Assembly: GCA_027460535.1 (NCBI GenBank)
Contig: JAPZAR010000018.1
Span: forward strand, 1-32,000
Length of the DNA: 32,000 nucleotides
Reading direction: 5' to 3'
Origin: Candidatus Methanoperedens sp.
GTDB taxonomy: Archaea; Halobacteriota; Methanosarcinia; Methanosarcinales; Methanoperedenaceae
Part shown: positions 9,301 to 23,682 of the stretch, in pieces
How the letters are laid out: each line of letters opens with the position of its first letter
How positions within the stretch are numbered: position 1 is the first letter of the stretch
Position numbers and translations under genes: made by a program
The notes under the pieces: generated by a model
What the model was told of the DNA's origin: nothing
The model's database searches: none
The model's input: the letters and a program-made list of their open reading frames with translations, nothing else

Positions 9301-9648
9301 ATCGAAATCATCGATTACAAGACAGGGAAATCTGAACCTGGACCTGCTGAGCGCTCCCGACAGCTTTTGCTGTATGCCCGGGGTATAGAGCATGTTTATC
9401 CAAAATACAGGGTGAAAAGACTCACTCTGGAACAGCTCGGTCTTCCCAATCCCAGGACTTTTGAACTAAAGGATGGGAAGTTTGAGAGCGCGGGCAGTTC
9501 ACGGATGGAAGGGCTTGATGGGAATGCTATTATTGATATGATTGAGATCGCAAAGTCGATAGCACATGATTATGAACATGGGTTTGAGAGGACGAAGGAT
9601 GAGAAAGCTTGTGAAGAGTGCGGATTTAGGTTGTATTGTGGAGATTGA
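6385..9648 (+). CDS. UvrD/PcrA-type SF1 helicase fused to a C-terminal 4-Cys PD-(D/E)XK (Cas4/AddB-like) nuclease
   Basis: 1087-aa ORF with a TTG start and GGTGA upstream. Helicase motifs: LAGAGTGKTTT, IIIDEFQDTN, VVADPNQAIYAFRGA, SFRSTNKIL, MTVHAAKGLEFSVVFL, RRLAYVALTRAKEHLFL. Nuclease motifs: YERCPRQYEL, GNFVHKVLE, GFIDRVDL..IEIIDYKTGK, RQLLLYA, CEECGFRLYC. Confidence 0.93.
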   Translation: MLNSLLSSLKPRQLEAIKHTQGPQLILAGAGTGKTTTITAKIANMVEKEGIDPSQILALTFSKEAARNMREKVEKLLQGKEVIVKTFHSFCAELIRDNADRCKVPGDFKIFEEIDSAIFIFRELGTDARTASLYANTIGKSKDLNISMDKFKEFLEKLKKQVQDIEKDESKWKELYRQSKFKLNTFHLQEYKDKEDKKAKQAEKKRYSEFIDLYEEYQKYSNFISAWEKYEEKKSAIGALDYGDLNKIALWYLDVYGTQELNDTFRYIIIDEFQDTNYVQFELIKKLTAADNNITVVADPNQAIYAFRGAYTNNIDEFKKQFTLSDKDIVSLDVSFRSTNKILRVAHTLIEKNYREEKKKDCQLLKNHKDIEGENVRIIETEDDNEEARAIVEKIEFFLAQGIPPKEIAVLYRTHAQGRKVRQALENRGLPFRVKDDTDFLKQPEIKTALAYLYVINNISHPAARGTEAWWRIFHYNNALSQEDSIRIGEYLKKKWVSFQEAIYHHIGELGLSKSGLETISNVKKRIDSLCGKKNLDVSDLILEVYDLSGLSRQFAHTDTKRSREALLNLRQLHELASNFEEFHGKDLSLFIDYLEILDEMDGNPPPARIADEDAINLMTVHAAKGLEFSVVFLTNLAKDKFPLYRGGAEPLVPPELMDQYRDIFEDKSIKDIEKAVRERKREIKKEEERRLAYVALTRAKEHLFLTLATRYTEDEREPSEFLTDIGYNNWRAGGNIKVGDLNYFRDTDTKVREMIKDSALEREKAMRKRLLIESLDSGDFNEIMKNALLYQALKVEGTPDFKELIDSSWPKIDPTDDADRILAKIKEKKNGLKFNPASMTFSYSSISTYERCPRQYELAELLRMPARDSEDSTGAMRRGNFVHKVLEIAVSEKIATKERLYEIRDTVAKEPDFRGVDIETATAALDVFWERNKNRMANNLMVEQRFAVQLGGFTFKGFIDRVDLIPGTKDEIEIIDYKTGKSEPGPAERSRQLLLYARGIEHVYPKYRVKRLTLEQLGLPNPRTFELKDGKFESAGSSRMEGLDGNAIIDMIEIAKSIAHDYEHGFERTKDEKACEECGFRLYCGD

Positions 9649-9733
9649 AAATAAAAATTTATCAAAAGAACCTATCAATCTATATATAAAGAAATCATAG
9701 ATATATTCCTAAAAATATGATGCTGTGAACAGT

Positions 9734-9838
9734 ATGGAAGAAATAATCGTAGATGACACTTATAAAATCCATTTCTCAAAAAAATTAGTAGATCGGCTCA
9801 ATATTAAGCCCAGAGATAGGTTATACGATAACGTATAA
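9734..9838 (+). pseudogene. Possible truncated AbrB/SpoVT-type antitoxin fragment
   Basis: The 34-aa ORF MEEIIVDDTYKIHFSKKLVDRLNIKPRDRLYDNV resembles the 'xIxIPKxIRexLgIKpGDxL' half of a swapped-hairpin domain. It is too short to be complete. Confidence 0.25.
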
Positions 9839-9869
9839 CTTATATGTGTGTAAATGCATTGTTATTCTT

Positions 9870-10076
9870 ATGTGCCATGCTGCCGTAGAGGTTAAAAAAT
9901 GGGGTAATTCCCTCGGAATAATCATCCCAAAAGACAAAATCACTGAACTGGGATTATCTGAAAAGGATATTATCGATATAGATATTTTAAGAAAAGAAAA
10001 AGTAAGCGGATTTGGTATAGCGAAGGGGAAAAAGCCGTTTGAAAGGGAAGAAACCGAACATGAAGACCTCTGGTGA
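9870..10076 (+). CDS. vapB: AbrB/MazE/SpoVT-family antitoxin (VapB-like)
   Basis: VEVKKWGNSLGIIIPKDKITELGLSEKDIIDIDI is a typical MazE/AbrB motif. The ORF opens at GTG 9846, but ATG 9870 is the more plausible start. The stop lies 1 nt before the vapC ATG. Confidence 0.8.
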   Translation: MCHAAVEVKKWGNSLGIIIPKDKITELGLSEKDIIDIDILRKEKVSGFGIAKGKKPFEREETEHEDLW

Positions 10077-10077
10077 T

Positions 10078-10464
10078 ATGGTGTACCTGATAGATACCTA
10101 TGCCTGGATTGAATATTTCACAGGTTCAAAAAACGGGGAGAAAGTTAAAAAAATAATAGAAGATGAGAACAATATCATCATCACTCCTGAATGCTGCCTC
10201 GCGGAGATAAAAGGTTGGGCTATCAGGGAAAACATGGATTTTGAGGAGCTATATACAATCATAAGGAAAGTTTCCAATATCCAGTGTATCTTGACTCAGG
10301 ATTGGCTGGAAGCTGCAGCCATTCGAAGTGAGCTTCGAAAAACCAGAAAAGGCTTTGGTATGATAGATGCTCTTATCATCGCTCAGCAGAAAAGATTGGG
10401 CCACAAAGTAGTCAGCGGCGATCCTCATTTTGAACATTTAAAAGATGTGATCTATATAAAATAG
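10078..10464 (+). CDS. vapC: PIN-domain toxin (VapC)
   Basis: The N-terminus MVYLIDTYAWIEYF carries the first PIN acidic residue. ITPECCLAEI, GMIDALIIAQQ and SGDPHF fit a PIN fold. The ATG at 10078 follows the vapB stop directly. Confidence 0.85.
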   Translation: MVYLIDTYAWIEYFTGSKNGEKVKKIIEDENNIIITPECCLAEIKGWAIRENMDFEELYTIIRKVSNIQCILTQDWLEAAAIRSELRKTRKGFGMIDALIIAQQKRLGHKVVSGDPHFEHLKDVIYIK

Positions 10465-10535
10465 ATAAATGTGCCTTTTAATATGCTGACATATTCTTTA
10501 AGCTGTTCAAGTTTGGATGCAATCTCATCATTCAC
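10452..10535 (-). pseudogene. 27-codon stump of a HEPN (DUF86-like) toxin partner of the MNT gene
   Basis: The GTG start overlaps the MNT stop in a GTGA overlap, as in intact MNT-HEPN pairs. VNDEIASKLEQLKEYVSILK resembles DUF86 N-termini. The ORF ends after 27 aa, running 13 nt into the 3' end of vapC. No Rx4-6H motif region is present. Confidence 0.4.
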
Positions 10536-11002
10536 GTGAAACCAACCTCGGCAATCCTTTTCAGGGTTTCTTCCGTATGCCTATTTATGTAATATTTTTG
10601 ATCCATATACATAGAAAGGATTTTTGTTTCAAACTTTACTCTATCTATCTCATTGGATTTTAAAATAATTCCATCTTTTATAATATTATGTGCCAAAAGC
10701 AGAGGCGCATCGTTTAAAACAACCAGATCTATTTTATTTTTCTTAATTAAAACCGCTATTTCACTAATTAATTTTAATTCCAGATCGAAGCGGTCTTTTT
10801 TAGACAATTTTTCATCCAGCAGGACTCCAATATCAACATCGCTCAATCTACCTGTATCGCCCCTGACCGTTGACCCAAAAAGATAAGCAAGTTTTATGCT
10901 ATCTTTGCTGCTGAAATATTCTGTTAGTTCTTTTTCATATTGTATCATGAATACTCTATAATTTGTTTTTGCTAATATATGTTCTTCGCTCATGTGCAGC
11001 AT
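10532..11002 (-). CDS. Nucleotidyltransferase-domain protein (MNT-type antitoxin)
   Basis: 156-aa ORF. LAYLFGSTVRGDTGRLSDVDIGVLLD is the GS..(D/E)xD minimal nucleotidyltransferase signature. Confidence 0.85.
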   Translation of the reverse strand: MLHMSEEHILAKTNYRVFMIQYEKELTEYFSSKDSIKLAYLFGSTVRGDTGRLSDVDIGVLLDEKLSKKDRFDLELKLISEIAVLIKKNKIDLVVLNDAPLLLAHNIIKDGIILKSNEIDRVKFETKILSMYMDQKYYINRHTEETLKRIAEVGFT

Positions 11003-11052
11003 CTTCAGGCGGGAGTATAACAGGCGCAGGTATCGGTGGGGTTTGTATTGGG

Positions 11053-11178
11053 TTATAACTATTTAAATCACGGCGCCGATACGTTCCCGAAGCATCCTCA
11101 TTCCTCAAAACCAAAGCCTGCCAGGTCACACATATAATACAAACCGCAGATGAACGCAGATGAACGCAGATTTGTTAC
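11053..11178 (+). repeat. Interspersed repeat family, copy 6 (long form ending in a 3x GAACGCAGAT-type tandem)
   Basis: TTATAACTATTTAAATCACGGCGCCGATACGTTCCCGAAGCA...AAAGCCTG...AAACCGCAGATGAACGCAGATGAACGCAGATTTGTTACC is collinear with copy 1 (186-297). Confidence 0.8.
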
Positions 11179-11420
11179 CAGGGAATCGCATATCTCTACC
11201 ATTATTTTACCTATGTTTCAATATCAATCAAAATACCGCGCCGCCGTCCTCCTCTTCTTTCCCGCAGGTGTGACAGCAAGAAGGGGAGGATGTACTTGCG
11301 AGCAAGATTGTTTGGGTTGATGAAATAGTGCTTGATTATTTCTTTTTCGATTAACTATTTTCTGTTCATCTTCCATTCGGGCAGCGATTTGCATTTGACC
11401 GCTGTTGACATCCTAAATAT

Positions 11421-12950
11421 TTAATTGTTTGAAATAACTTTTATTATATTTGTAGGGCTTTCAGAAATCTTCCAATTGTCACCGTTTGCAAGAATATATG
11501 TATGGTCTGATACTTTTTCTAATCCCCCAGCAGTATTATTACCTATTATTATCGTGAATATTCTCGCATCATTTTCATTCTTTAATTGATTCCACTTTTG
11601 GATAAGCATTTCTTCGCTTATTTGAGAAAGCCCATCTGTAATAAATAATAAGTCAGCACTTTTCCATTTCTTTTCTTCTGTAACGTTGATTCCAGAAGCG
11701 AGTGCTGTGTTGAAGTCTGTTCCACCCCCAAAACTCATACTCATAAAATTGAGGAATTCCGATGCCATTTTTGTCTTGTTTGTTAATTCTATTTCATGGG
11801 TTTGGTTTGTTGATGAGAATAAGATTACCTTTACATCACGATCTTTTTTAAGCATTATTCTCACAATTGAAAGCATAAGAGCTTTCGCTAATATTTCTGG
11901 CTCTCCGTGCATCGAGCCAGAAGTATCCACTAAAGCTACAACAGGTCCACGTTTCCTTTTCTTAGGGGGACCACCAGCCCAGTATTTTCCCCTTAACTGA
12001 TATGTTAAGAGTTTTCCTTCACTATAATTAGCGAAAAATACGTTTTTCAGAATATTATCCTTAAGTTTGACCAACTCTATTGGGAGTATGTGTTGAATGT
12101 CTTTTGATATTCCAACGGAGAATACTTCTGAAGATCCAAAGTTAGTTATTGTAAGCCTCTTTGAACCGTATTCTAGTTCGATTCTGCCCAATAGTTCTAT
12201 CATTTTCTTTATTTCTCTGCTGTGTTCTAATATGCGCGAATATTGTGTAATATGTTCTAAGTATTCTCTATGTAGATCAACTAGCGAATAATCCCAAAGC
12301 CGTCCGGGGAACAGAAGATAAAGTAGTTCTATGGTTTCAAGCTCTTCTCTAATTTTTTCTATTTCCTGTGATATTTGATTAATAAATCCGATTTGAACTA
12401 TCTCGTTTAACATTTCTCCAGATTTTTCTTTTGCATGGAAGTCGTTGAAGTATGAGGATAGGATTTCTCCTTCTGGTGGTATGCCCTCTGTTCTTCTTCC
12501 CCAAAGTTTCAATGTTTCTTCTACAATTTTGCTGAATTCCTCAAGTAGTTTTTTTAAAACATTATCCGTTTTGTCTTCCATTTCCTTTTGATATTTTATG
12601 AAGTTCTCCATAAGGTCGAATATTTGGTTAAGAACTGCTTTTGCTGCCAGAATAGCGGTGATTTTGTTTTGACCAGCCAATTCCTTTATCTCTGTCCACA
12701 GGAGAGAATTTTTTATCGTTGATAGAATTGAATAAAAAGCACCGTATCTCTCAACGAATTTCGGAAGATCTTTAATTTCGATTGGAGCAGCATTTATCAA
12801 TTCTCTGATTACAATTTCAGATATTTCCTCCCTCATTCTCCGTGGGATTTCTCTTGGCGTGGCGATAAATGTGTGCATTTCTTCTTCTGCCAGTAGAGAA
12901 CGAACTGACCATTCGGGTGTATCGATTTCATCCGTGGTTTCTTCAGGCAA
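11421..12950 (-). CDS. viaA: ViaA-like von Willebrand factor A (VWA) protein
   Basis: 509-aa ORF. The TTG start has AGGAGTGG 7 nt upstream, 18 nt after the ravA-like stop. ViaA-like blocks are GRLWDYS, ILPIELVKL and LLTYQLRG. The MIDAS site is intact: VALVDTSGSM, FGGGTDF, LLFITDG. Confidence 0.9.
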   Translation of the reverse strand: MPEETTDEIDTPEWSVRSLLAEEEMHTFIATPREIPRRMREEISEIVIRELINAAPIEIKDLPKFVERYGAFYSILSTIKNSLLWTEIKELAGQNKITAILAAKAVLNQIFDLMENFIKYQKEMEDKTDNVLKKLLEEFSKIVEETLKLWGRRTEGIPPEGEILSSYFNDFHAKEKSGEMLNEIVQIGFINQISQEIEKIREELETIELLYLLFPGRLWDYSLVDLHREYLEHITQYSRILEHSREIKKMIELLGRIELEYGSKRLTITNFGSSEVFSVGISKDIQHILPIELVKLKDNILKNVFFANYSEGKLLTYQLRGKYWAGGPPKKRKRGPVVALVDTSGSMHGEPEILAKALMLSIVRIMLKKDRDVKVILFSSTNQTHEIELTNKTKMASEFLNFMSMSFGGGTDFNTALASGINVTEEKKWKSADLLFITDGLSQISEEMLIQKWNQLKNENDARIFTIIIGNNTAGGLEKVSDHTYILANGDNWKISESPTNIIKVISNN

Positions 12951-12968
12951 TGTTAACCACTCCTAACA

Positions 12969-14420
12969 TCAGAACCCGGAATTTCTGTGCACTGGCTTTA
13001 TAATAGGAATTTCGATTTTTACTTCATTTACGGTGATACCATTTTCTATTCTTTTTAACGTCTCCTCTACTTTGTGCACCGTTTTTATTTTATCATCGTA
13101 ATTCATCATAATGTCATGTCTATCCTTATGACTTAGCCATATGTTTGTTTCCATTAGCTGTTTCAAGCGTTCTCTTTCGCTGAATATTTTTTCTTTGACT
13201 GTTTCAAATTGCTCTTTTATTTCATTCATTTCTTTTTTATAACGTTTTAGTTGTGGTTCTGGTATTGTGGAGCCGAAATTCCAGGAGTGGTTTTCTTTTA
13301 ATTCTTTTATCAAGTCATTAAAATAAAATCTACGTATATTGTATTCATGTTTATTTTTGTCGGAGTATGGATTATTATATGTTTCATCAGGGTTTTTTGA
13401 TACGTATTCTTCAAGTTCTCTCCAACTGTTGAATTCTTTCTTCTCGTCCTGGGTCTCAATTGTTTTTGGGAATGTGTAATCTCTTGATTTTTCAGTTAGT
13501 GATTTGAGTTCCTCAGCGTCCTTCATTAATTTATCAAGGCTTACCCCCCCAGATATTGTTAAATCGATTAATAAATGCCTTATTGCATCTTTTTGTTCAG
13601 GTTTATCCCACGTCATATGCTGGAGTAATGGAACCATGGTTCTGTCTACAGATTCTCTTCCAATACTAACAGAAGCGATTTTTAATGCTTTCAGCATTTT
13701 TTTCCATCTTCTATCGGAAATATGGTGATTCATGGATCGAAGATTTTTCCTCAGCGCTAAAAGTGCATCAAGAACATCTTCTTCTATTTTAGCCTCATTT
13801 GCCTTTGTTTGAATCTCGTTGATAAATCGGATAGTTATTTTGCTCTGAATGTTCATCTTTTCAGTGTCACCAAGCAATAAATCTCTGAAATTAGTTTCAT
13901 CCTGAATGTATCCCATAGAATATCGAAATAGGAATCTGTCATATAATGCCTCTAAACTCTCATCCTCTTCAGGAAGTTCGTTGGACGCTGCAAAAACCGT
14001 CAGAAGAGGCGTGTCAATAAGTTCTCTTCCATTATGGAATTTTCTCTCGTTTAATAGTGTTAGCAGACTGTTAAGAATGGAGCTATTTGCTTTGAATATC
14101 TCATCTAAGAAGCATATATGGCTGGTTGGAATGTATCCCTCTATTTTCCTTTTGAATTCATCTTCTTGAAGGGACTTGATAGATAACGGTCCAAAAATCT
14201 CATCTGGGGTTGTAAATCTTGTCAAGAGATAGTAAAAGAAATTTCCCCCATCAATGGATTCGCATAACTTGAGTGCTAAGAGACTTTTTGCTGTTCCAGG
14301 AGGTCCCAGGAACAGTATATTTTCTCCAGATAAAATGCTCAATAATGCTCCAGCGATTTCTTCATCCCTCTCTTTGAAATTTTTCTCAAGGTTCAATTTT
14401 ATTTCTCTTAGATTTTGCAT
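12969..14420 (-). CDS. ravA: RavA-like MoxR-family AAA+ ATPase
   Basis: 483-aa ORF that is collinear with E. coli RavA through the AAA+ core. Shared blocks: ILFLGPPGTAKS (Walker A), YLLTRFTTPDEIFGPLSI, CFLDEIFKA (Walker B), VFAASNELPEEDESLEALYDRFLFR, ISDRRWKK. The C-terminal half is divergent. Confidence 0.92.
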   Translation of the reverse strand: MQNLREIKLNLEKNFKERDEEIAGALLSILSGENILFLGPPGTAKSLLALKLCESIDGGNFFYYLLTRFTTPDEIFGPLSIKSLQEDEFKRKIEGYIPTSHICFLDEIFKANSSILNSLLTLLNERKFHNGRELIDTPLLTVFAASNELPEEDESLEALYDRFLFRYSMGYIQDETNFRDLLLGDTEKMNIQSKITIRFINEIQTKANEAKIEEDVLDALLALRKNLRSMNHHISDRRWKKMLKALKIASVSIGRESVDRTMVPLLQHMTWDKPEQKDAIRHLLIDLTISGGVSLDKLMKDAEELKSLTEKSRDYTFPKTIETQDEKKEFNSWRELEEYVSKNPDETYNNPYSDKNKHEYNIRRFYFNDLIKELKENHSWNFGSTIPEPQLKRYKKEMNEIKEQFETVKEKIFSERERLKQLMETNIWLSHKDRHDIMMNYDDKIKTVHKVEETLKRIENGITVNEVKIEIPIIKPVHRNSGF

Positions 14421-14491
14421 TTTTACTTCTCCATTCGGACATATTTCTGATAGCTAATAAAATGTAATTCTGAGTCAATTTCGGAAAACAT

Positions 14492-16954
14492 TTATCCCCA
14501 TACCTCAGCAATCTTCGCCTTTATCTTCCCCTCGAAAAGCTCGATCAGTTTCTTATTCGCATCGACCAATTTCTGCTCCTCTTCAATTCGGGCAACGATT
14601 TCCTTTTGTATTTCTATTGCAGGAATACTTATTTTTATAGAGGTTATCATATTTTTCGTTAAATATCTAGTTAACCCGCCTATTGATTGTTGCTTTAGAG
14701 ATAATAGACTATTTTGCAAATAATAATTTAATAAAGGATAGGTTAACTTAGTCTTAAATTTGTCTTTAATAGTTATTATATAAGTTCTCTGATACGCATT
14801 AAATTTACCTTTACAATATTTAACATCAAAATCCCCAGACGCATTATTCCCACTTAATAAAAGGGCTTCACAATCAAATGCATAACTGTTTATCCTGAAT
14901 ATTTCTGTTTTTGAGCATGTAAAAAAAGGATATATTCCATCTCTTTCTGCTGCATTAGCATCAAGTTTCCCAGTTTCTATTTCACAAGCATCCCCTAAAT
15001 CCACCACCTCCCATCCCTCATCCACCTTAATCCTCGGCTTATAGTTCTCCACCACCTGCCGCGCCCCATCTATTATCTTCTGGTAGCCCTCGATCTCAGC
15101 CACAATCTCCTGCTGGACTGACAGGGGCGGGAGGGGGATTTTAATTTGTTTGAGTTCTTTTACAGAGACAACATTTTGAATAGCTGCACCAGAAGTATTT
15201 CTAAAATACTTTTGTTGAATATTTTCTTCTTCAAGAATTAATTTTAAATAGATAGGCAAAATTTTTTCAAATTGAGGTGTGATTTTTAAAAGTGCTTGAT
15301 TAATAATACCCTTTTTTGCACTTTCAGGAACAATCGCAACTTTCCCCATAGTCCCTGAACAACTAATTATAATGTCGTTTGGCTTTATTGCAAAGCCGAT
15401 CATTTCATTGTATTTGGCTTCATCAATATAATAATCTCCAATTTCAAAATTATTATTTATTGCGTGTTTTTGTTCATAAACTTTATAACCGTCCTTTACA
15501 AAAATTTCTTTCTTAAGAGAACCGCCAAAAGGACCTCTTTTAAAGAATGTCACCTCCCCCAATTCCACCATCGGCCAATCTTTATGCGAATGAACCACAG
15601 TATCCCTGTACCTATCTCCCGATAAGTAATAATCCCCAATTCCAGCGATTTTTGTCTTTAAAACCCTGTGAGCTAATTTGCTTTCATCCTCACTAAACTC
15701 ACATTCCTTCCCTTCTTGCAAACTCTTCTTATATCTTAAAATCACATCAAGCGCTCTTGGAAAATCATTCTTATCAATCGCTCTTCTCTGCGCGCCAAGG
15801 TCAAATCCCTCATTTTCAATTTTCACAAAAAGAACGTCCTGCGCCCTTTTAGCCAGGCTTTTATCCATCAGCAAAATACTTGTCTTAACCCCTGAATACG
15901 GCTGGAAAACTCCTTGTGGTAAAGATACAACCGCGAAAAGATAACCGCTTTCCACAAGCAGTTTGCGAAGCGCTTTATATGCATTCGCAGACTGGAAAAT
16001 GATTCCCTCAGGCACGATAACTCCCGCCCTTCCGTTTATGGTAAGATGTTCCATGATATAATCCACGAACAGGACTTCCGAACGGTTCGCCTGGACTGAG
16101 AAGCGTTTATGCGGACGGATTCCGCCCTTCGGCGTCATAAAAGGCGGATTTGCCAGAATCACGTCATAGGTCTCGTTCCATTTCTCCTCGCTCGTGAGCG
16201 TATCGTATTCGTAAATTTTCGGGGTCTGGAAACCGTGCAGATACATATTCACAAGCGAAAGCCTCACCATATCAGGAGAAATGTCATAACCTACAAGGCT
16301 GTTCATCAATCTTTTGCGCTCATCCATGGTCAAACAATCCCCTTTTCTCTCCTTCGTATTCTGCTTGAGGATGTGCTTGTATGAGGAAATCAAGAATCCG
16401 GCTGTAGCACAGGCCGGGTCAAGGATTGTCTCATTTTTCTTCGGGTCAACCACTTCGACTATGAAATCAATAATATGCCGTGGTGTCCTGAACTGTCCCG
16501 CATCACCCTGCGAGCCAAGCACTGACAGGAGATATTCAAAAGCATCCCCCAGTTTCTCGCTATGGTCATATTTGAACTCGTTTATTTCTTTTAAAAAGCT
16601 TTTCAACGTTTCTGGATCGCGGTATGGAAGGAAGGCATTCTTGAAAATATCTCTGAAAAGCTGCGGGATATTCTCGTTATGGTTCATTTTGGCGATGGCT
16701 TCGCTGTATAGTGCTATGAGTTCAAATCCTCCCAGACGCGGGTCAAAAATGCGCGACCATGTGAATTTCTCGAATTCTCCGGTGAAGAATGCTGCTTTAC
16801 CTCCGAGCTCCTGCGATTCTTTATCCATGTCGTCCATGAACTTGTAGATGAGCGCGATTGTTATTTGCTCGACCTGTGATTTCGGGTCTGGCACTTTTCC
16901 TACAAGGATATCGCGGGCGTTATCGATTTTTCTTTTTGTTTCCTGATCTAACAT
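14492..16954 (-). CDS. hsdM: Type I R-M methyltransferase fused to the specificity subunit (HsdM-HsdS fusion)
   Basis: 820-aa uninterrupted ORF. HsdM part: N-terminal KSQVEQITIALIYKFMDD, FRTPRHIIDFIVEVV, ILDPACATAGFL, ILANPPF, C-terminal tail GDYYLSGDRY. The HsdS part follows directly. It has two target-recognition domains (from WPMVELGEV and WEVVDLGDA) separated by the conserved helices LPPLSVQQEIVAEIEGYQKII and IPAIEIQKEIVARIEEEQKLV. Confidence 0.9.
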   Translation of the reverse strand: MLDQETKRKIDNARDILVGKVPDPKSQVEQITIALIYKFMDDMDKESQELGGKAAFFTGEFEKFTWSRIFDPRLGGFELIALYSEAIAKMNHNENIPQLFRDIFKNAFLPYRDPETLKSFLKEINEFKYDHSEKLGDAFEYLLSVLGSQGDAGQFRTPRHIIDFIVEVVDPKKNETILDPACATAGFLISSYKHILKQNTKERKGDCLTMDERKRLMNSLVGYDISPDMVRLSLVNMYLHGFQTPKIYEYDTLTSEEKWNETYDVILANPPFMTPKGGIRPHKRFSVQANRSEVLFVDYIMEHLTINGRAGVIVPEGIIFQSANAYKALRKLLVESGYLFAVVSLPQGVFQPYSGVKTSILLMDKSLAKRAQDVLFVKIENEGFDLGAQRRAIDKNDFPRALDVILRYKKSLQEGKECEFSEDESKLAHRVLKTKIAGIGDYYLSGDRYRDTVVHSHKDWPMVELGEVTFFKRGPFGGSLKKEIFVKDGYKVYEQKHAINNNFEIGDYYIDEAKYNEMIGFAIKPNDIIISCSGTMGKVAIVPESAKKGIINQALLKITPQFEKILPIYLKLILEEENIQQKYFRNTSGAAIQNVVSVKELKQIKIPLPPLSVQQEIVAEIEGYQKIIDGARQVVENYKPRIKVDEGWEVVDLGDACEIETGKLDANAAERDGIYPFFTCSKTEIFRINSYAFDCEALLLSGNNASGDFDVKYCKGKFNAYQRTYIITIKDKFKTKLTYPLLNYYLQNSLLSLKQQSIGGLTRYLTKNMITSIKISIPAIEIQKEIVARIEEEQKLVDANKKLIELFEGKIKAKIAEVWG

Positions 16955-17016
16955 TTTTTAACCTTCGTTTAATAATTTGCAGAAATAATTACAAACATTA
17001 TGCTCATTCATAACCA

Positions 17017-19536
17017 TCACACGAACTTATAGAGAGAAACATAATCTTTCACATACTCAGGTATCATCTCACACCACTTTCTCACTTCCCGGAACTCCTC
17101 CATCGAAAACTGGGAATTTGTCGCAAAACGCCCGAATTCTTTTGATTCCATAATATCCCTCACTTCATGGTCTATAATATATGCTTTTATAAAATTCCTT
17201 ATGAGCGGTACTTCCCTGCTTTCCGGTTTATAAATAGATATGAATCTCTCAACTTCCTCATCAAGCAATTCCTCTTTCGTCTTAAATACAGTAATCCTTC
17301 CAAATATCTTCTCTATGATCTCCCGCAAACTCAGGCGGCGGTCAATTCTCAACGATTTTCTCAACTTCTCAAGATTATAGAATTCTTCAGGTTTTTCAAA
17401 AATCTTACTTTTTATATATTCTTCAATGGCATCGAAATTTTCTTTTTCAATATTCTCTTTTATGAAGATATTATTCCTCACAGTATTCTCGAATTTATCA
17501 AAGAACATACGGTCTATTTTCATTCCATCCATGCCGATAGCGTATTCCTCAAGGCTTGTTAGAGGGTCGAAACTGAGATTCTCATATTCACTTGTCCTTT
17601 CCTCACCCTCACCGCCTCCTGTATATGTAGTCCTTGGAGGCAATTTCAAAACTTCATTATAATTATATTTCTCTTCAAAGTACTCGCAATTCGCAAAAAA
17701 ATCAAAAAGCTTGAATTTTTCTTTAGCTTTCTTTATGATTTCGTTATCGTGCCCATTTTTCATGGAAAATGCAAAATCATACTTTCTTGTACCCCTTCCT
17801 TTTATCTGGATAAAATCCGTTGGTGAAAATATAGGGCGCATCAAGCATATATTCAAAATATCCTGGCAGTCATAGCCTGTCGTCATCATTCCAACGGTTA
17901 CGCATACCCTTGTTTTGCTCGTTTTATAACCTTCCAGAAACCGCGAATTGCCGGATAGGTTATTACTTGTATCGGTAAAATTGATAGTAAATTGCTGCGC
18001 ATCCTGAACGTTTGACGTTATCTGAAGAGCAAAATCTGAATTATATTTTCCAGGATATAATTTATCTGCAAACTCATTCATTACCTGTGTTATTTTTGAG
18101 GCATGGTTCTGGCTTACGCAAAAAACAATGGTTTTGCCAATCTCTCCACTTATTGGATCTCTGAGAGCATTTTCAATGAAAGTCTTGCAGAATATTTTGT
18201 TTGTTTCTTCAGAGAGAAATTTGTTCTCAAAATCCTTATGAAAATATATCTGCTCTTCTTTTATTCCTTCAGTATTTTCTACGATGATAGAGTAACCTTT
18301 TTCTGAAAGTAACTGTGTGGTGATTTCGGTTCGCGCATCAACAGCAACTGGGTTCACAAGATATCCATCCCTCACAGCGTCAATAAGACTGTAGCGAAAA
18401 GTCGGATTCCCGCTCTCGCAGCCAAATGTGATATAGGTGTCCCTAAGCTGTCTTCGTTCCCATTCGCGCGGGTCTTTCTTACTTACTTTATCAGGGTCTA
18501 AATACTTCAGATAATCTTTAGGTGTGGCAGTAAGACCGAGCTTATAGCCAACAAAATACTCAAAAACAGCCCTGCTGTTCCATCCGATCGAGCGGTGGGC
18601 TTCATCCGAAATCAATAGGTCAAAATCCGTGGGTGAAAAAAGCCTCTGATATTTATTGTCAAAAGAAAGGCTCTGGACGGTGGAAACGACAATCTCAGCT
18701 TTTCGCCAATCGTCCTTATTTTCTTTATAAATTATAACTTTGTAATCATTTTTTAGCCATTTAATAAAATTTTTCTTCGCTTGGTCTTCAAGTTCTAATC
18801 GGTCAACAAGAAAAAGCACCCTCTTTGCATTACCTGATCTTAAAAACAGTTTGATAACCGCGGCTGAAATCAGAGTCTTTCCTGTTCCTGTCGCCATTTC
18901 AAAAAGGAACCTGTCGTTCCCATCTTCTACAGATTCCTGCAAAGCATGAACCGCATCCAACTGATACGGTCTTAAGAATTTCAGTCCGGATTCATGTATG
19001 TAGTCTGCTCTTGTTTTGTCATTATTCCAGCGCGGGTCTTTATCAAAAAGAGGGTTCTGGATTCGGGTAATGTAATCCTCTCCAACTATTTCGCTTACAA
19101 GAGTTGAAGGATTGGGCGCAAAAGAAGCTGTATGATAAAGCGATTCTAATGTTGGGAATTTTGTGATAACACTGGGATTTCCACGCTCTAAATCCCAGAA
19201 ATAATGCAAATTGCCATTTGAGAGTATCACGAATCTCACATTTTGCGATTGCGCGTATTTCCTTGCCTGCTCTTTCCCATCAAGAGGATTTTTATCTTCA
19301 GATTTTGCCTCTACTATTACAAATGGGAAGCCCTTTTCATTTAGAAGAAGAAAATCTGTAAATCCATTTTCTGTTTTTTCAAAATCATTCCCAAATTCAT
19401 CAAGGTTTTTTCTGGTGATTTTGACATTATTCTCTAAAACGATATTGGCTTTTCCTTTTTCATCATCAAAAAACCTCCAACCCGACTGTTCAAGGAGTTT
19501 ATTGATCTTAATGCGCGCTTTTGCCTCTTTTTGCAT
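17017..19536 (-). CDS. hsdR: Type I restriction enzyme R subunit (HsdR; PD-(D/E)xK + SF2 helicase + EcoEI_R_C-like tail)
   Basis: The ORF opens at TTG 19548, but ATG 19536 has GGAGG 6 nt upstream. Nuclease motif: FTDFLLLNEKGFPFVIVEAKS. Helicase motifs: MATGTGKT, LLISDEAHRS, QIKGRGTR. Confidence 0.92.
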   Translation of the reverse strand: MQKEAKARIKINKLLEQSGWRFFDDEKGKANIVLENNVKITRKNLDEFGNDFEKTENGFTDFLLLNEKGFPFVIVEAKSEDKNPLDGKEQARKYAQSQNVRFVILSNGNLHYFWDLERGNPSVITKFPTLESLYHTASFAPNPSTLVSEIVGEDYITRIQNPLFDKDPRWNNDKTRADYIHESGLKFLRPYQLDAVHALQESVEDGNDRFLFEMATGTGKTLISAAVIKLFLRSGNAKRVLFLVDRLELEDQAKKNFIKWLKNDYKVIIYKENKDDWRKAEIVVSTVQSLSFDNKYQRLFSPTDFDLLISDEAHRSIGWNSRAVFEYFVGYKLGLTATPKDYLKYLDPDKVSKKDPREWERRQLRDTYITFGCESGNPTFRYSLIDAVRDGYLVNPVAVDARTEITTQLLSEKGYSIIVENTEGIKEEQIYFHKDFENKFLSEETNKIFCKTFIENALRDPISGEIGKTIVFCVSQNHASKITQVMNEFADKLYPGKYNSDFALQITSNVQDAQQFTINFTDTSNNLSGNSRFLEGYKTSKTRVCVTVGMMTTGYDCQDILNICLMRPIFSPTDFIQIKGRGTRKYDFAFSMKNGHDNEIIKKAKEKFKLFDFFANCEYFEEKYNYNEVLKLPPRTTYTGGGEGEERTSEYENLSFDPLTSLEEYAIGMDGMKIDRMFFDKFENTVRNNIFIKENIEKENFDAIEEYIKSKIFEKPEEFYNLEKLRKSLRIDRRLSLREIIEKIFGRITVFKTKEELLDEEVERFISIYKPESREVPLIRNFIKAYIIDHEVRDIMESKEFGRFATNSQFSMEEFREVRKWCEMIPEYVKDYVSLYKFV

Positions 19537-19629
19537 TACTGCCTCCAACCATCATATCTTAGATTTTAGTAAGGTCTATTTAATTCTTGTTGATATTATA
19601 TATTGTTACTTGCCGCACGGACAATAAAT

Positions 19630-20040: not shown

Positions 20041-20423
20041 TTCTCTAACCCTGCCTCATCAGGCTTTTCATGTATCAGAAGCCCTTCTAAAGTCTCCATT
20101 CCATAACCCTTCAACCTGTTCGTGATCAGGTCTACGACTTCGGGGGACCAGCCATAAGAACAGAAGGCTGCTCCAACTTTGCCTTTCAAACCCACATCTT
20201 TTGCCTGATCCAGGAAAACCTCAAGGGCCGGCATTATTTCATGGTGGTAAGTACCAGAACCAAGAACCACACCATCAACGTTTCTAATATCCTCTATCTT
20301 CGCCTCATGGACATGCGATAGATTCACATCCACTTTTTCTGACTTTATTCCTTCTGCTATCGCTTTTGCCATCGCCTCGGTATTATGCGTTGCAGAATCG
20401 TATATTATTGCCACTTTTGCCAT
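19992..20423 (-). CDS. Flavodoxin-like protein
   Basis: 143-aa ORF. MAKVAIIYDSATHNTEAMAKAIAEG is the FMN phosphate-binding loop S-x-T-x-N-T. VVLGSGTYHHE and AAFCSYGW also fit the short-chain flavodoxin fold. Confidence 0.85.
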   Translation of the reverse strand: MAKVAIIYDSATHNTEAMAKAIAEGIKSEKVDVNLSHVHEAKIEDIRNVDGVVLGSGTYHHEIMPALEVFLDQAKDVGLKGKVGAAFCSYGWSPEVVDLITNRLKGYGMETLEGLLIHEKPDEAGLEKCREFGKRIAMKVKGR

Positions 20424-20445
20424 ATTATTTCCCCATTTATCAACA

Positions 20446-20503
20446 CTTTGCGCTCTTTGCGTTCTTTGCTCCGTTCACCGCAGAGGTCGCAAATTTCGCA
20501 AAG
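20446..20503. repeat. Tandem CTTTGCG units plus inverted CGCAAAG copies (hairpin-forming) in the gap between the IscU-fusion gene and the flavodoxin gene
   Basis: CTTTGCGCTCTTTGCGTTCTTTGCT (20446-20470) and CGCAAATTTCGCAAAG (20488-20503). The reverse complement GAACGCAAAG is a variant of the GAACGCAGAT motif. Confidence 0.6.
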
Positions 20504-20528
20504 ATTATTTTTACTGTGATTTCAATCC

Positions 20529-21863
20529 TTAACGCCAATAAGGTTTTCTTAATTCAATGTATGCGTTATGCGCCACCGTGGCACCATGCGCCACCGCGAC
20601 CACTACGAGCTGGAGGTCAGAGGCTATGTCGCCGACTGCGTATACTCCATCGATATTGGTCTTCTGCGTCTTATCGGTCTTCAGGTATCCTTTCACATCC
20701 ATTTCAAGGCCGAGCTTCTTGAATATCTCTGTGTTCGGTGTCATGCCCACGGCCAGAACAACCGCGTCAACTACCTGCTGGATGGTTTCATCTTCCTTCA
20801 GATCCTTCATTATGACTTTTTCGACCTTGTCTGTTCCTGCAATTTCCTGAACCTCAGTATTGTACAAAACCTTGATTTTATCGATAGCTTTCATGCGCTC
20901 GATCTTGTAGGGATCTGCTCTTAACTCATCTTTCCCGTGCGCTATAGTAATGAGGTCGGCAGTATCAGCCAGGCTCAAAGCTGCATCGACGGCCGAGTTG
21001 CCCCCGCCCACGATAAGAACCCTTTTTCCTGTGAATTTCTCGGGATTTGTTACGTAATAATATACTCCGCGCTCGCCCTTGCCGAATTTCTCTTCACCCT
21101 TTATGCCACCTGCTGCCGGAGAGCTGCCTGTGGCCAGAACTATTATCTTTCCCTTGTATTCACCGCTTTCCGCAATGATCTTCCTGTCCTGAGTGATCTC
21201 ATTCACACGTTCTTTTTTTAATTCCACCTTCAATTTCTTGGCTTCATTCACCCACTGGTTGACAAGGTCCTGGCATGTTGATTTCTCACAAAGCCCGGGG
21301 AAGTTCTCGATCATCTTGTTAGGACATAGCCATGAGAGTATCCCGCCCCAGTTGGAGGCTTCGAAGATGGCGGTTTTGAGGCCCCTGTACGCACACAATA
21401 TCCCTGTGGTCAGCCCTCCCGGGCCGCCTCCCACGACTATCACGTCAAAATCATATTTCTCTCCCTCGATCTTGGCACGCTCTTCCTTTTTGTTCATGTA
21501 ATCCTGGATGGCGGCATGAAGGGCATCTGCAGCGAGGTTCGAGCAGTGCATCTTGATCGGGGGAAGACCGTCAAGCTCCGCTGCCACATCACCGCGGGTG
21601 ATCTTGAGCGCCTCTTCAAGCGTTTTTCCGATCGCCATTTCTGTTATCATGCTGCTCGTAGCGATCGCAGAGCCGCAGCCGAACGTCTTGAATTTCACGT
21701 CTTTCAGGATATTATTCTCGACCTTTATCTGGATCTCCATCAGATCCCCGCATACGGGATTCCCGACCCTTCCTACACCGTCCGCATCTTTAATCTCACC
21801 CACATTCCGGGGATTCCTGAAATGATCCATTACCTTTTCTGAATATTCGAATTGTTCTGCCAT
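20529..21863 (-). CDS. IscU/NifU-type Fe-S scaffold fused to a thioredoxin-reductase-like FAD/NAD(P)H flavoprotein that lacks the CxxC
   Basis: The start is taken at ATG 21863, which has GGTGA 5 nt upstream. The longer ORF to 21926 would read through the intergenic repeat. IscU part: GNPVCGDLM, KTFGCGSAIATSS, KMHCSNLAADAL. Flavoprotein part: DVIVVGGGPGGL, GKRVLIVGGGNSAVDAAL, DGVYAVGDIA. The position of the TrxR CATC motif reads GVYYYVTNPEKF. Confidence 0.88.
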   Translation of the reverse strand: MAEQFEYSEKVMDHFRNPRNVGEIKDADGVGRVGNPVCGDLMEIQIKVENNILKDVKFKTFGCGSAIATSSMITEMAIGKTLEEALKITRGDVAAELDGLPPIKMHCSNLAADALHAAIQDYMNKKEERAKIEGEKYDFDVIVVGGGPGGLTTGILCAYRGLKTAIFEASNWGGILSWLCPNKMIENFPGLCEKSTCQDLVNQWVNEAKKLKVELKKERVNEITQDRKIIAESGEYKGKIIVLATGSSPAAGGIKGEEKFGKGERGVYYYVTNPEKFTGKRVLIVGGGNSAVDAALSLADTADLITIAHGKDELRADPYKIERMKAIDKIKVLYNTEVQEIAGTDKVEKVIMKDLKEDETIQQVVDAVVLAVGMTPNTEIFKKLGLEMDVKGYLKTDKTQKTNIDGVYAVGDIASDLQLVVVAVAHGATVAHNAYIELRKPYWR

Positions 21864-21890
21864 TATTTCACCTGGTTTAGTGATTATATC

Positions 21891-21955
21891 GAACGCGGAT
21901 GAACGCCGCAACAAATCTGCGTTCATCTGCGTTTATCTGCGGTTTTTTTATTTTG
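21891..21955 (+). repeat. GAACGCAGAT-family element forming an imperfect 16-bp inverted repeat followed by a T7 run
   Basis: GAACGCGGATGAACGC (21891-21906) pairs with GCGTTCATCTGCGTTT (21919-21934), followed by ATCTGCGGTTTTTTTATTTTG. The element lies in the 102-nt gap between iscS and the IscU-fusion gene. The T-run is on the strand antisense to the operon. Confidence 0.7.
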
Positions 21956-21965
21956 ATTCCCCTAT

Positions 21966-23141
21966 TTATTTTTTATGATAAAGCGGCGATAATGCCCTGA
22001 GTTTAGCAACTATTTTAGGCACTGAGTCAATAACATAATCAACATCTTCTTCCGTATTAGACCTGCCGAGTGTTAGCAGAAGCGAGCCGTGCGCCTCCTC
22101 GTGCCTTAATCCCGTGGCAATAAGCACATGCGACGGCTCAAGCGTTTTCGAGGAACATGCCGAACCTGTGCTTGCTGTTATTCCCAGATCGTTGAGCTGC
22201 AATATGATGCTCTCGCCTTCGATGAAACTGAAGCGAAAACTCGCATTGTTTGGAAGTCTCTTTGTCCTGTGACCTGTGAGATATGTATATTCCATTTTAA
22301 GGATATTATCTATCAACCTGTCACGTAGTTTTATAAGTCGTTCACCTTCCTCTACCATTTCCTTCTGGGCAAGCTCCGAAGCTTTCCCCATCCCAACAAT
22401 TCCGGGGATGTTCTCAGAGCCGCTTCTCATCCCGAATTCCTGCCCACCTCCAAGCATAAAAGGCATGAGCCTTACACCCTGCTTGATATACAGGGCTCCC
22501 GCGCCTTTCGGACCGTGCATATCATTTGATGAAATGGTTAAGAGATCGATATGCTCCTTTTCAGCATCAATAGGGACCTTTCCAACTGCAGCTGTCCCAT
22601 CCACATGGAATAATATTTTCTTATCAGATGCGATCTCACCTATTTCCCTGACCGGCTGCACGGTTCCTATTTCTCCGTTAGCGTACATTACAGAGATGAG
22701 AATGGTTTTGTCTGTTATTGCATTCTTTACTTGTTCAGCGTTCACCAGTCCATCTTTGTCAATGGGGACATAGGTCACCTCAAATCCGCTTCTCTGCAGG
22801 TCTTTCAAGGTATTCATTACAGACATGTGCTCGATAGAGGTGGTAATTATATGATTTCCCTTGTCTTTATACCGCAACGCTGCGCCCCTCAACGCAAGAT
22901 TATTAGATTCCGTGGCGCACGAAGTGAAAACGAGGCTCTTCGGGTTTGGCGCGTTTATCAAATCTGCAACTTTTTGCCTGGCTCCTTCAAGTTCTCGCTT
23001 GGCTTTCCTCCCGGAAGAATGGAGGGAGGAAGGGTTCCCGATATCTTTATCAAAATATGGCAACATGGCTTCAAGCACCCGCGCATCAACGGGTGAAGCT
23101 GAACCGTGATCCATGTAAACCTGTCTCATTTTTTCACTCAA
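21966..23141 (-). CDS. iscS: IscS/NifS-family cysteine-desulfurase homologue lacking the PLP-binding lysine
   Basis: It is collinear with E. coli IscS: VFTSCATESNNLALRGAA, TSIEHMSV, HVDGTAAVG, GMRSGSENIPGIVGMG, STGSACSS. The SGHK motif is replaced by ISSNDMHGPKG. The ORF opens at TTG 23141, but ATG 23129 (MRQVYMDHGS) is the more likely start. Confidence 0.9.
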   Translation of the reverse strand: MSEKMRQVYMDHGSASPVDARVLEAMLPYFDKDIGNPSSLHSSGRKAKRELEGARQKVADLINAPNPKSLVFTSCATESNNLALRGAALRYKDKGNHIITTSIEHMSVMNTLKDLQRSGFEVTYVPIDKDGLVNAEQVKNAITDKTILISVMYANGEIGTVQPVREIGEIASDKKILFHVDGTAAVGKVPIDAEKEHIDLLTISSNDMHGPKGAGALYIKQGVRLMPFMLGGGQEFGMRSGSENIPGIVGMGKASELAQKEMVEEGERLIKLRDRLIDNILKMEYTYLTGHRTKRLPNNASFRFSFIEGESIILQLNDLGITASTGSACSSKTLEPSHVLIATGLRHEEAHGSLLLTLGRSNTEEDVDYVIDSVPKIVAKLRALSPLYHKK

Positions 23142-23150
23142 TTTTCCTTT

Positions 23151-23312
23151 TTATATCCGCCTGTCCCTGCCCTCTGGTCCTTCGCATTCTGGTATATAGC
23201 AGGTCGCATCAATAAAAGCGCACGCCTCATTACAGCTGGGGCACCTCTCGGGAGGTGATGCGCTCCCTTCGAACTGGTAGCCGCACATGGAGCATTTCCA
23301 CTGGATATTCAT
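23151..23312 (-). CDS. Rubredoxin-like zinc-ribbon mini-protein
   Basis: The 53-aa product from ATG 23312 is MNIQWKCSMCGYQFEGSASPPERCPSCNEACAFID... It has CxxC...CxxC, like the C-terminal domain of rubrerythrin, plus 4 further Cys. It lies 10 nt after the dsrE-like stop and 9 nt before iscS. Confidence 0.7.
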   Translation of the reverse strand: MNIQWKCSMCGYQFEGSASPPERCPSCNEACAFIDATCYIPECEGPEGRDRRI

Positions 23313-23322
23313 AAGAATACTC

Positions 23323-23682
23323 TTAAAACCACATCGCTCCGTCAGCTTCCAGCACAAGGTCATTGAGCGTTGCAGCGCCCACGATCTCTGCCGCGGGAAT
23401 AAAATCTCCTCTCCCAAGGTTTATTAACTGCGTGCTTTGCTCGCACACCATGAGCTTTACTCCTGCTTTCACAGTCTGGTCCATTACCTCTTTAAGAGAC
23501 GGAAATTTCCCTATCTTTACCTTTTCTGCATTCCCTTTTTTCACAACAGTGATCCCCATACCCAGGAAATATATGGTGGCATCTATCCCCATTGCTTTCG
23601 CGGTCTGTGCCAGGATAAAAGGGGAATAAAGGCGTTCAGGTGTATCGACACCACTTGTCTGGACATATAGAATGTTAGTCAT
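23323..23682 (-). CDS. DsrE/DsrF-like (COG2044-type) sulfur-relay family protein
   Basis: 119-aa ORF. ILYVQTSGVDTPERLYSPFILAQTAKAMGIDATIYFLGMG...VKLMVCEQS...AATLNDLVLEADGAMWF fits the DsrE-fold pattern with a conserved Cys. Confidence 0.8.
   Translation of the reverse strand: MTNILYVQTSGVDTPERLYSPFILAQTAKAMGIDATIYFLGMGITVVKKGNAEKVKIGKFPSLKEVMDQTVKAGVKLMVCEQSTQLINLGRGDFIPAAEIVGAATLNDLVLEADGAMWF

Follow-up and report, generated by a model that had tools for sequence, protein, structure and literature searches.

An IscU scaffold fused to a CxxC-less thioredoxin-reductase-like flavoprotein in Candidatus Methanoperedens: a candidate scaffold-reductase for iron-sulfur cluster assembly

Background

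Every pathway of iron-sulfur (Fe-S) cluster assembly needs electrons, which convert persulfide sulfur to sulfide and serve in the fusion of [2Fe-2S] units. Where these electrons come from is the question raised by a gene in a 32,000-nucleotide (nt) stretch of Candidatus Methanoperedens sp. (assembly GCA_027460535.1, contig JAPZAR010000018.1, positions 1 to 32,000; hereafter the window), which encodes in one polypeptide an IscU-type scaffold and a flavoprotein with the fold of thioredoxin reductase (TrxR). A sequence-only reading of this DNA had proposed that the flavoprotein half is a TrxR-type ferredoxin/flavodoxin-NAD(P)+ reductase (FNR) and that the fusion would hard-wire the electron supply of the scaffold.

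Ferredoxin, itself reduced through NADPH and FNR, supplies IscS/IscU with electrons (PMC4547094), and NifU unites scaffold, electron-donor and carrier functions in a single polypeptide (PMC13066941). For the minimal MisS/MisU-type (MIS) systems, a 2026 review calls the electron donors unclear (PMC13066941). By gene content, the cluster analysed here falls under the MIS definition of that review, namely a desulfurase plus an IscU-like scaffold, with no chaperone, A-type carrier or ferredoxin. The fusion, with scaffold and reductase in one chain, is a concrete and purifiable candidate for the electron donor of such systems, kept in the nitrate-/metal-dependent methane oxidiser Methanoperedens, in marine anaerobic methanotrophic (ANME) archaea of group ANME-2a and in Asgard archaea. 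Each of the two component families is well known, and the joining of a scaffold to a redox module has its precedent in NifU. Full-text searches and targeted reading on ANME, Methanoperedens and Fe-S assembly yielded no description of an IscU-flavoprotein fusion, in line with the initial impression that the architecture is uncharacterised.

Results and discussion

One continuous chain joins scaffold and flavoprotein

The open reading frame (ORF) runs for 444 codons to its stop codon, uninterrupted by any earlier stop or by a frameshift; its coordinates had been given correctly at the outset, with no strand attached, and the gene lies on the minus strand. A longer, mechanically called ORF reaching 21926 was dropped, every orthologue beginning with M-(A/D/E)-EQFEYSEK. 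In Pfam, NifU_N matches residues 6-127 (E 7e-50; 125 of the 127 profile positions of PF01592) and Pyr_redox_2 matches residues 139-427 (E 3e-42). The NCBIfam model NifU_clost (TIGR03419) is passed with 209.4 bits against a cut-off of 187.9, and the three-domain NifU model TIGR02000 fails, with 147.7 of the 273.3 bits required and coverage of profile positions 2-133 out of 290 only.

The N-terminal part had been described as a complete IscU, and this is borne out by the two scaffold models and by the presence of Cys38, Asp40, Cys63, His106 and Cys107. Throughout the family the three cluster cysteines are kept (116/116 fusions), as is an identical MHCS motif containing His106. The closest solved scaffold structure is 7c8m, annotated "Nitrogen-fixing NifU domain protein". 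It aligns with residues 1-128 at E 2e-59, and D40 and H106 carry the same numbers in both proteins. Assembly and transfer of Fe-S clusters are the predicted functions of this domain. The C-terminal part carries the GGGPGG, GGGNSAVD and GD motifs from which a TrxR-fold protein with two dinucleotide-binding domains had been recognised, and its YYYVTN falls exactly on the C-A-x-C of four solved TrxRs in HMMER alignments, where the first reading had placed it.

At the junction, a break had been suspected at about 21480-21500. The frame stays open here, as it does in about 40 genomes of Methanoperedens and in lineages further away, and the observation of an IscU-flavoprotein fusion in a single polypeptide is confirmed. 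The linker differs in length by 15-22 residues between fusion subgroups.

The fusion is recurrent and under purifying selection

A search of 5.8 billion proteins returned at least 115 full-length proteins with both domains. Source-named matches at 75-92% identity are mostly from Candidatus Methanoperedens, and a further set lies at 55-66% identity. A genome scan, which covered one genome per species with patterns taken from the Methanoperedens sequence and is hence biased to close relatives and does not bound the range, located the intact ORF in about 40 Methanoperedens/Methanoperedenaceae genomes and in the ANME-2a archaeon Candidatus Methanocomedens. Cluster look-ups added a subgroup in Asgard archaea (Jordarchaeia/Freyarchaeota and Sigynarchaeota), and overall the fusions fall into at least four subgroups: Methanoperedens, ANME-2a, Asgard and two unassigned groups. 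The family is narrow but deep, because clustering of 15 billion proteins at 50% gave one full-length fused representative. The 51-aa "cluster members" of the Asgard cluster, for which recoding or a split gene had been considered, proved to be unrelated short ORFs.

Against nine Methanoperedens orthologues, the nonsynonymous distance (dN) is 0.03-0.06 for the IscU half and 0.07-0.19 for the reductase half. Synonymous sites are saturated; where the synonymous distance (dS) was computable, dN/dS is about 0.02-0.07, with roughly 0.04-0.07 for the reductase half. Both halves are kept under strong purifying selection. Invariant across the at least 115 orthologues are the GxGxxG motif for flavin adenine dinucleotide (FAD), the GG and ATG motifs, the G(D/N) motif and the second dinucleotide motif GxGxxA.

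Public annotations name the fusion either "NifU" or "thioredoxin reductase". Entries consisting of the reductase alone, 303-326 aa long (P0088-P0090, P0510, P0516, P0524), are gene calls from the internal Met123; in a closed 3.3-Mb Methanoperedens assembly (L067, 4627..5000), the DNA upstream of Met123 encodes, in frame, a normal IscU domain. Calls starting at Met123 (also P0527) occur in several archaeal metagenome-assembled genomes (MAGs) under the name "NAD(P)/FAD-dependent oxidoreductase", with the IscU half unannotated.

The reductase half belongs with CxxC-less relatives

Which kind of flavoprotein is attached to the scaffold? The best solved sequence matches are genuine TrxRs of low relative molecular mass (HMMER; 7jyp, 4zn0 and 2q7v, E ~1e-42), and those of Thermosipho africanus (7jyp) and Methanosarcina mazei (4zn0) have about 33-35% identity and the FAD and NADPH motifs in common with the fusion. 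Foldseek also places low-molecular-mass TrxRs on top (E ~1e-30, TMt 0.78-0.86). The TrxR-like FNRs 6gas and 3lzw come lower, at E ~1e-33 and 116-119 bits versus 149 for the TrxRs of the Protein Data Bank (PDB). Unlike these TrxRs, the fusion has no CxxC, its flavin loop is three residues longer, so that canonical TrxRs need a three-residue gap there when aligned to the window protein, and it fails the TRX_reduct model TIGR01292, which is nevertheless the top NCBIfam match for the reductase half (229.1 bits against a cut-off of 343.45). The YpdA model TIGR04018 matches weakly, with 97 bits, far under its cut-off of 340.

None of the 116 fusions has a Cys at the CxxC site. Within a library of 1.84 billion proteins, all homologues above 200 bits are CxxC-less, and canonical CxxC TrxRs appear from 181 bits down. 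The nearest standalone CxxC-less relatives are about 320 aa long, and the source-named ones come from Thermoplasmatota, Methanofastidiosia and Hydrothermarchaeota. A redox disulfide elsewhere in this half had been named as a point to check. No conserved one is evident, as the family has no invariant Cys there: the best kept is Cys180 (105/116), and Cys157, Cys192 and Cys197 are specific to Methanoperedens.

Like the fusion, the FNR of Bacillus subtilis (YumC, hereafter BsFNR; the query used is identical to PDB 3lzw), FNR1/2 of B. cereus and the FNR of Chlorobaculum tepidum have the two-Rossmann fold of low-molecular-mass TrxRs without CxxC. BLASTP aligned GGILSWLC180PNKMIENFPG of the window protein to GGQLSALY50PEKYIYDVAGF of BsFNR without a gap, and VYYYVTNPEKF to LHYFVDDLQKF. 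The flavin-loop pattern GG.L..L(Y/C)P.K and, at the former CxxC site, (H/Y)Y(F/Y)V....KF.G.RV...GGG(D/N)SAVD are common to both; a likeness in partner is that a flavodoxin gene adjoins the fusion in this strain. Identity to BsFNR is only 28%, the fusion has Cys180 for Tyr50 and, in this copy, HGK for HRR, and is without the C-terminal extension carrying the re-face stacking His/Phe, and none of the characterised TrxR-like FNRs is covalently joined to IscU. In a neighbour-joining tree, the fusions form a clade with one standalone protein (P0123; 62% bootstrap), and BsFNR falls inside the CxxC-less group with weak support (46%). We assign the reductase half to an archaeal CxxC-less clade with signature motifs common to TrxR-like FNRs.

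The initial designation as a TrxR-type FNR was thus right in part: the CxxC-less relatives, the flavin loop and the YY(Y/F)V...KF pattern make the lineage assignment reasonable, whereas the closest solved proteins are TrxRs, the C-terminal extension is lacking and the stacking Tyr50 is replaced by Cys180. The C-terminal PYW was considered as an FNR-like sign of flavin stacking and rejected; some canonical CxxC TrxRs of archaea have the same tail, and the ANME-2a and Asgard fusions lack it.

A cysteine at the flavin and a variable donor motif

In BsFNR, Tyr50 contacts the isoalloxazine and stacks on the si-face of FAD (PMC10526003). The equivalent position is Cys in 105 of 116 fusions (91%) and Tyr in the other 11, among them the sampled Asgard-type (subgroup C) proteins; in the standalone CxxC-less relatives it is Tyr in 119 of 120. 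This exchange of Tyr for Cys at the flavin is the sharpest fusion-specific position found.

The motif for NAD(P)H specificity, HRRxxxR, varies. It reads HGKDELR in the window, a rare variant even among close orthologues, HR(K/R/H)xELR in most Methanoperedens, AHKEKEFHG in an unassigned fusion subgroup, AYKEKDLVG in Asgard fusions and an acidic VTDxDSF in ANME-2a fusions, in which GD is also changed to GN. The electron donor may therefore differ between lineages, as this motif varies while the FAD and GxGxxA motifs are invariant.

A bacterial short form keeps only one subdomain

A large bacterial family of about 257 aa, from TA06, WOR-3, Aminicenantes, Deltaproteobacteria and Clostridia MAGs, combines IscU with only the NADPH subdomain of the TrxR fold (about window residues 253-372). 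Its GxGxxG has degenerated to VLDRGEKS, both segments of the FAD domain are absent, and it sits in the same TusA-DsrE-NifS operon. AlphaFold and Foldseek confirm both folds, with a disordered linker between them (predicted template modelling score, pTM, 0.52). In the TrxR fold the NADPH subdomain is inserted into the FAD domain, and the short form is therefore most simply taken for a deletion derivative.

The fusion lies in a minimal desulfurase-scaffold operon

In the window, the gene of a NifS/IscS-type (MisS) cysteine desulfurase lies directly upstream of the fusion, and nearly every Methanoperedens locus has the order DsrE-NifS-fusion. The other subgroups also have the desulfurase upstream; of their four contexts, three show it immediately next to the fusion and the fourth has one gene in between, and in three of the four DsrE and/or TusA precede it. 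DsrE also stands upstream of NifS in ANME-2a, in the bacterial short-variant operons and in Methanomassiliicoccales, which have an unfused DsrE-NifS-IscU operon. This suggests that a conserved persulfide relay may feed this minimal type of Fe-S operon. No ferredoxin, chaperone or A-type carrier gene occurs within the cluster 19992-23682, and its neighbours are unrelated.

A rubredoxin-like ORF lies between DsrE and NifS in about 28 of 40 Methanoperedens loci by tblastn and is absent from the ANME-2a and Asgard contexts examined; its product is a possible one-electron carrier or mediator. The flavodoxin gene lies 105 nt downstream of the fusion. Of about 40 Methanoperedens loci, 9 have a flavodoxin gene directly after the fusion, and two more have one no further than 1.5 kb away. 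Across archaea and bacteria, DsrE-like and/or TusA genes are seen ahead of NifS-IscU pairs (L042, L063, L065, L066, L068-L071).

Between NifS and the fusion, the spacer contains a 15-nt inverted repeat (21892-21906 and 21919-21933, 93% complementary), ACGCAGAT as a direct repeat in three copies, the TATA-like sequence ATATAAT and the ribosome-binding site GGTGA. Several orthologous loci have no more than about 10 nt between the two genes, which are therefore normally co-transcribed. CGCAAAG repeats are found in the spacer between fusion and flavodoxin (20424..20528), and the spacer repeats could be regulatory or terminator elements.

A self-contained scaffold-reductase as a working model

From this architecture and context we lean, with modest confidence, towards a fusion that serves Fe-S assembly in a minimal MisS/MisU-type system as scaffold and reductase in one self-contained protein. 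Persulfide sulfur would pass from the neighbouring cysteine desulfurase to the IscU domain, possibly with the DsrE-like carrier as a relay, and this domain would build [2Fe-2S] and [4Fe-4S] clusters on Cys38, Cys63 and Cys107. The FAD-binding, CxxC-less TrxR-fold domain most likely accepts hydride from a pyridine nucleotide, probably NADPH in Methanoperedens and perhaps another donor elsewhere. Electrons might then reach the scaffold directly from the flavin, or via the product of the rubredoxin-like ORF or, in this strain, flavodoxin, and would serve to reduce S0 to sulfide, to couple two [2Fe-2S] clusters reductively, or both. Since enzymes of the TrxR fold are homodimers, the fusion would also keep two scaffold domains in one complex, an arrangement that would favour [4Fe-4S] formation. 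The analysis establishes the identity of the domains, the conserved motifs, the operon setting, the recurrence in several lineages and the purifying selection. Binding of both FAD and NAD(P)H, dimerisation, and the direction in which electrons flow and their target are predicted features, and delivery of electrons to the scaffold by the reductase half is something we only infer.

Several observations weigh against such an electron-supplying scaffold. The AlphaFold (AF2) model of the fusion, built from a 46-sequence alignment, has confident domain folds (mean predicted local distance difference test score, pLDDT, 85.8) and no confident arrangement or interface between IscU and the reductase (pTM 0.58). 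In this model, the C-terminal IscU helix 102-134 runs almost straight into the FAD-domain strand 139-144, with pLDDT below 50 at 132-134, and a short distance in cis between FAD and cluster is not evident, because the scaffold residue Cys107 is modelled at the far end of this helix of about 33 residues leading to the FAD domain. Compared with an FNR, the fusion has lost the Tyr50 equivalent in most members and lacks the C-terminal extension: the 3lzw alignment stops at BsFNR residue 310, leaving 22 BsFNR residues unmatched, and the window protein runs on for only about 10 residues (..YIELRKPYWR). We take that extension of BsFNR to cover the re-face of the flavin through His324. The variable specificity motif means that no single donor is kept among lineages, and NAD(P)H is not the main carrier in ANME archaea, which depend chiefly on F420 and ferredoxin. 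An obligatory partnership with flavodoxin is unsupported, as its gene adjoins the fusion in only 9-11 of about 40 Methanoperedens loci. Finally, the bacterial short form shows that part of the appended module can persist without redox cofactors.

The last point leads to an explanation that we consider rather unlikely, in which the appended module is mainly non-catalytic or protective and not an obligatory source of electrons for sulfur reduction. It could be a docking or oligomerisation platform for the desulfurase, carrier or client proteins, or else an NAD(P)H oxidase/diaphorase that keeps nascent clusters reduced or scavenges O2 or nitric oxide (NO) near the scaffold. The bacterial family retains the motif-less NADPH subdomain, with no FAD domain, in the same TusA-DsrE-NifS setting, and therefore the appended module need not act solely as a reductase; the variability of the donor motif points the same way. 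For a protective role speak the rubrerythrin and peroxiredoxin (AhpC-TSA/Redoxin) genes beside the bacterial short-variant operon (L070/L071), the desulfoferrodoxin-type genes near the ANME-2a fusion (L066), and the way of life of Methanoperedens, which respires nitrate and meets NO and O2 stress. However, a purely structural domain would be unexpected, because the archaeal fusions keep every FAD motif and GxGxxA invariant and their reductase half is under strong purifying selection, and the two domains of the bacterial short form are also modelled without a confident interface. A role as an ordinary thioredoxin (disulfide) reductase that merely happens to be fused to IscU, as database names such as "thioredoxin reductase (NADPH)" imply, is very improbable: although bona fide TrxRs are its best PDB matches in sequence and fold and TRX_reduct is its top NCBIfam model, that score is far under the cut-off, the CxxC is missing from all 116 fusions, no other Cys of this half is invariant and the nearest relatives are all CxxC-less. 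As for a sequencing error that merged adjacent iscU and reductase genes, we regard the chance as negligible, since the public calls of the reductase alone merely begin at Met123, with the upstream DNA in frame, and the same continuous ORF recurs in about 40 independently assembled Methanoperedens genomes, in ANME-2a, in Asgard archaea and in other lineages.

The remaining alternative keeps the reductase and changes its chemistry. Here, Cys180 at the si-face of FAD would take sulfane sulfur from MisS, from DsrE or from an IscU cysteine as Cys-S-SH or a mixed persulfide, FADH2 would reduce the persulfide in a two-electron step, and sulfide would be released onto the neighbouring scaffold domain, in a chemistry akin to that of single-Cys flavoprotein (per)sulfide or disulfide reductases and not to that of FNR. 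The split between Cys in fusions and Tyr in standalone relatives, the ungapped alignment to BsFNR in the flavin loop and the contact of Tyr50 with the isoalloxazine ring (PMC10526003) argue for it, as do the two-electron nature of the step from S0 to S2-, which fits hydride and thiol-flavin chemistry, and an operon rich in the persulfide carriers DsrE and TusA. Against it, the Asgard subgroup keeps Tyr (11/116), the two standalone proteins nearest to the fusions (P0123 and P0128) also carry Cys, and the model is at its least confident in the flavin loop (pLDDT 67-80). We know of no precedent for a redox Cys at this position in the low-molecular-mass TrxR fold. YpdA-type bacillithiol-disulfide reductases and the CoADR/Npsr enzymes are flavoenzymes that use NAD(P)H to reduce S-S bonds, have no CxxC and are relevant here; the Cys of YpdA, however, sits in the GxGxxG motif and not in the flavin loop, and CoADR/Npsr are a different subfamily of the fold. 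Taken together, a single-cysteine persulfide reductase is unlikely. Its fullest version, a new kind of sulfur-reducing scaffold in which FAD and Cys180 form a built-in persulfide reductase that turns desulfurase S0 into sulfide on the tethered IscU domains of a dimer and so puts two-electron flavin-thiol chemistry in place of the ferredoxin step, with the bacterial IscU-NADPH-subdomain proteins as degenerate descendants, appears rather doubtful. If this version were true, it would show how ferredoxin-less MIS systems obtain their electrons.

Among known systems, one functional analogue of the scaffold-reductase that we favour is NifU of the Azotobacter vinelandii type, in which a scaffold is likewise joined to a redox module, proposed as the electron supply in cluster synthesis, and encoded beside NifS (PMC13066941). 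There, the scaffold is followed by a permanent [2Fe-2S] redox domain and an Nfu domain, whereas the redox module of the fusion is a flavoprotein of about 305 aa, not a [2Fe-2S] ferredoxin-like domain, and Nfu is absent. With the archaeal MIS system (MisS/MisU), the locus has in common the minimal desulfurase-plus-scaffold operon and an IscU half that aligns end to end with 7c8m. Characterised MisU is a standalone protein of about 130 aa, in contrast to the fusion with its 305-aa flavoprotein, and the fusion operon adds the DsrE-like carrier, the rubredoxin-like ORF and, in this strain, flavodoxin. The proposed task, bringing NAD(P)H electrons to IscS/IscU to reduce persulfide and couple clusters reductively, is that of the ISC chain of Fdx/FDX2 and Fpr/FdxR (PMC4547094), a second functional analogue. 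That chain, however, consists of separate soluble proteins with other folds, a plant-type or glutathione-reductase-type FNR and a [2Fe-2S] ferredoxin, whereas the reductase of the fusion is tethered and of TrxR fold, and its cluster has no ferredoxin gene.

If the scaffold-reductase model holds, an IscU scaffold would for the first time be seen to receive electrons from a flavin, independently of ferredoxin, and the fusion would be a compact module for heterologous production of Fe-S proteins. Even if it were only a tethered FNR, the annotation would profit, as databases now use either "NifU" or "thioredoxin reductase" and some calls drop the IscU half. Furthermore, the Tyr-to-Cys switch and the cofactor-less bacterial relatives provide two sharp hypotheses that are open to mutagenesis.

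Further features of the locus and its relatives

The coordinates of the features are collected in Table 1. Directly downstream of the flavodoxin gene lies a defence-like island (6385..19548), whose genes are listed there.

Table 1. Positions of the fusion, its domains and motifs, and its neighbours in the window, with the bacterial short form in the last row
Feature	Position	Strand	Evidence or remark
DsrE-like small sulfur-carrier protein, 119 aa, single Cys in LMVCEQS	23323..23682	-	Pfam DsrE 2e-17; first gene of the cluster
Rubredoxin-like ORF, 53 aa, CxxC...CxxC plus three more Cys	23151..23312	-	Pfam RUBY_RBDX 2.6e-8
NifS/IscS-type (MisS) cysteine desulfurase, 391 aa	21966..23141	-	Aminotran_5 5e-73; FeS_nifS 505 bits, cut-off 531
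NifS-fusion spacer, 102 nt	21864..21965	-	inverted repeat, ACGCAGAT repeats, ATATAAT, GGTGA
IscU-reductase fusion	20529..21863	-	ORF and domain searches
IscU/MisU scaffold domain, residues 1-127	21483..21863	-	NifU_N, TIGR03419, 7c8m
PVC38GD40	21744..21758	-	scaffold motif read from sequence
FGC63GS	21669..21683	-	scaffold motif read from sequence
MH106C107S	21540..21554	-	scaffold motif read from sequence
Linker ERAKIEGEKYD, residues 128-138	21450..21482	-	continues IscU C-terminal helix
CxxC-less TrxR-fold flavoprotein, residues 139-444	20532..21449	-	Pyr_redox_2, TrxR alignments, Foldseek; C-terminal KPYWR
FAD motif GGGPGG, residues 145-150	21414..21431	-	
Cys180 codon	21324..21326	-	aligned with Tyr50 of B. 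subtilis FNR
YYYVTN at CxxC site, residues 268-273	21045..21062	-	
NAD(P)H motif GGGNSAVD, residues 286-293	20985..21008	-	
HGKDELR at NADPH-specificity site	20919..20939	-	
GD motif, residues 411-412	20628..20633	-	
Short-chain flavodoxin, 143 aa	19992..20423	-	Flavodoxin_1 3.5e-18; NCBIfam flavodoxin models under cut-offs
HsdR-like restriction subunit	17017..19548		defence-like island
Type I restriction-modification methylase/specificity fusion	14492..16954		defence-like island
MoxR AAA+ ATPase	12969..14420		defence-like island
VWA protein	11421..12950		defence-like island
Nucleotidyltransferase	10532..11002		defence-like island
UvrD/PD-(D/E)XK helicase-nuclease	6385..9648		defence-like island
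Bacterial short form (P0129, P0130, P0389-P0507)	loci L068-L071, gene 5001-5807 / 5001-5771		

In a locus of the unassigned subgroup B (L064), a second, standalone Pyr_redox_2 protein of 309 aa is encoded two genes downstream of the fusion (8281..9210), with an unannotated ORF of 220 aa between them. Among the scaffold homologues, one IscU protein of 504 aa (P0190) carries an intein-like insertion exactly at the cluster-ligand Cys63 (..KTFGC|LPPK....VVHN|CGAAVATSS..). Others (L056-L061) have short Cys-rich C-terminal tails, CCLDETCDLC in Planctomycetota/Brocadiia and CHGCNKKC in Nanoarchaeia, and such tails are another route by which a possible metal or redox site is appended to the scaffold.

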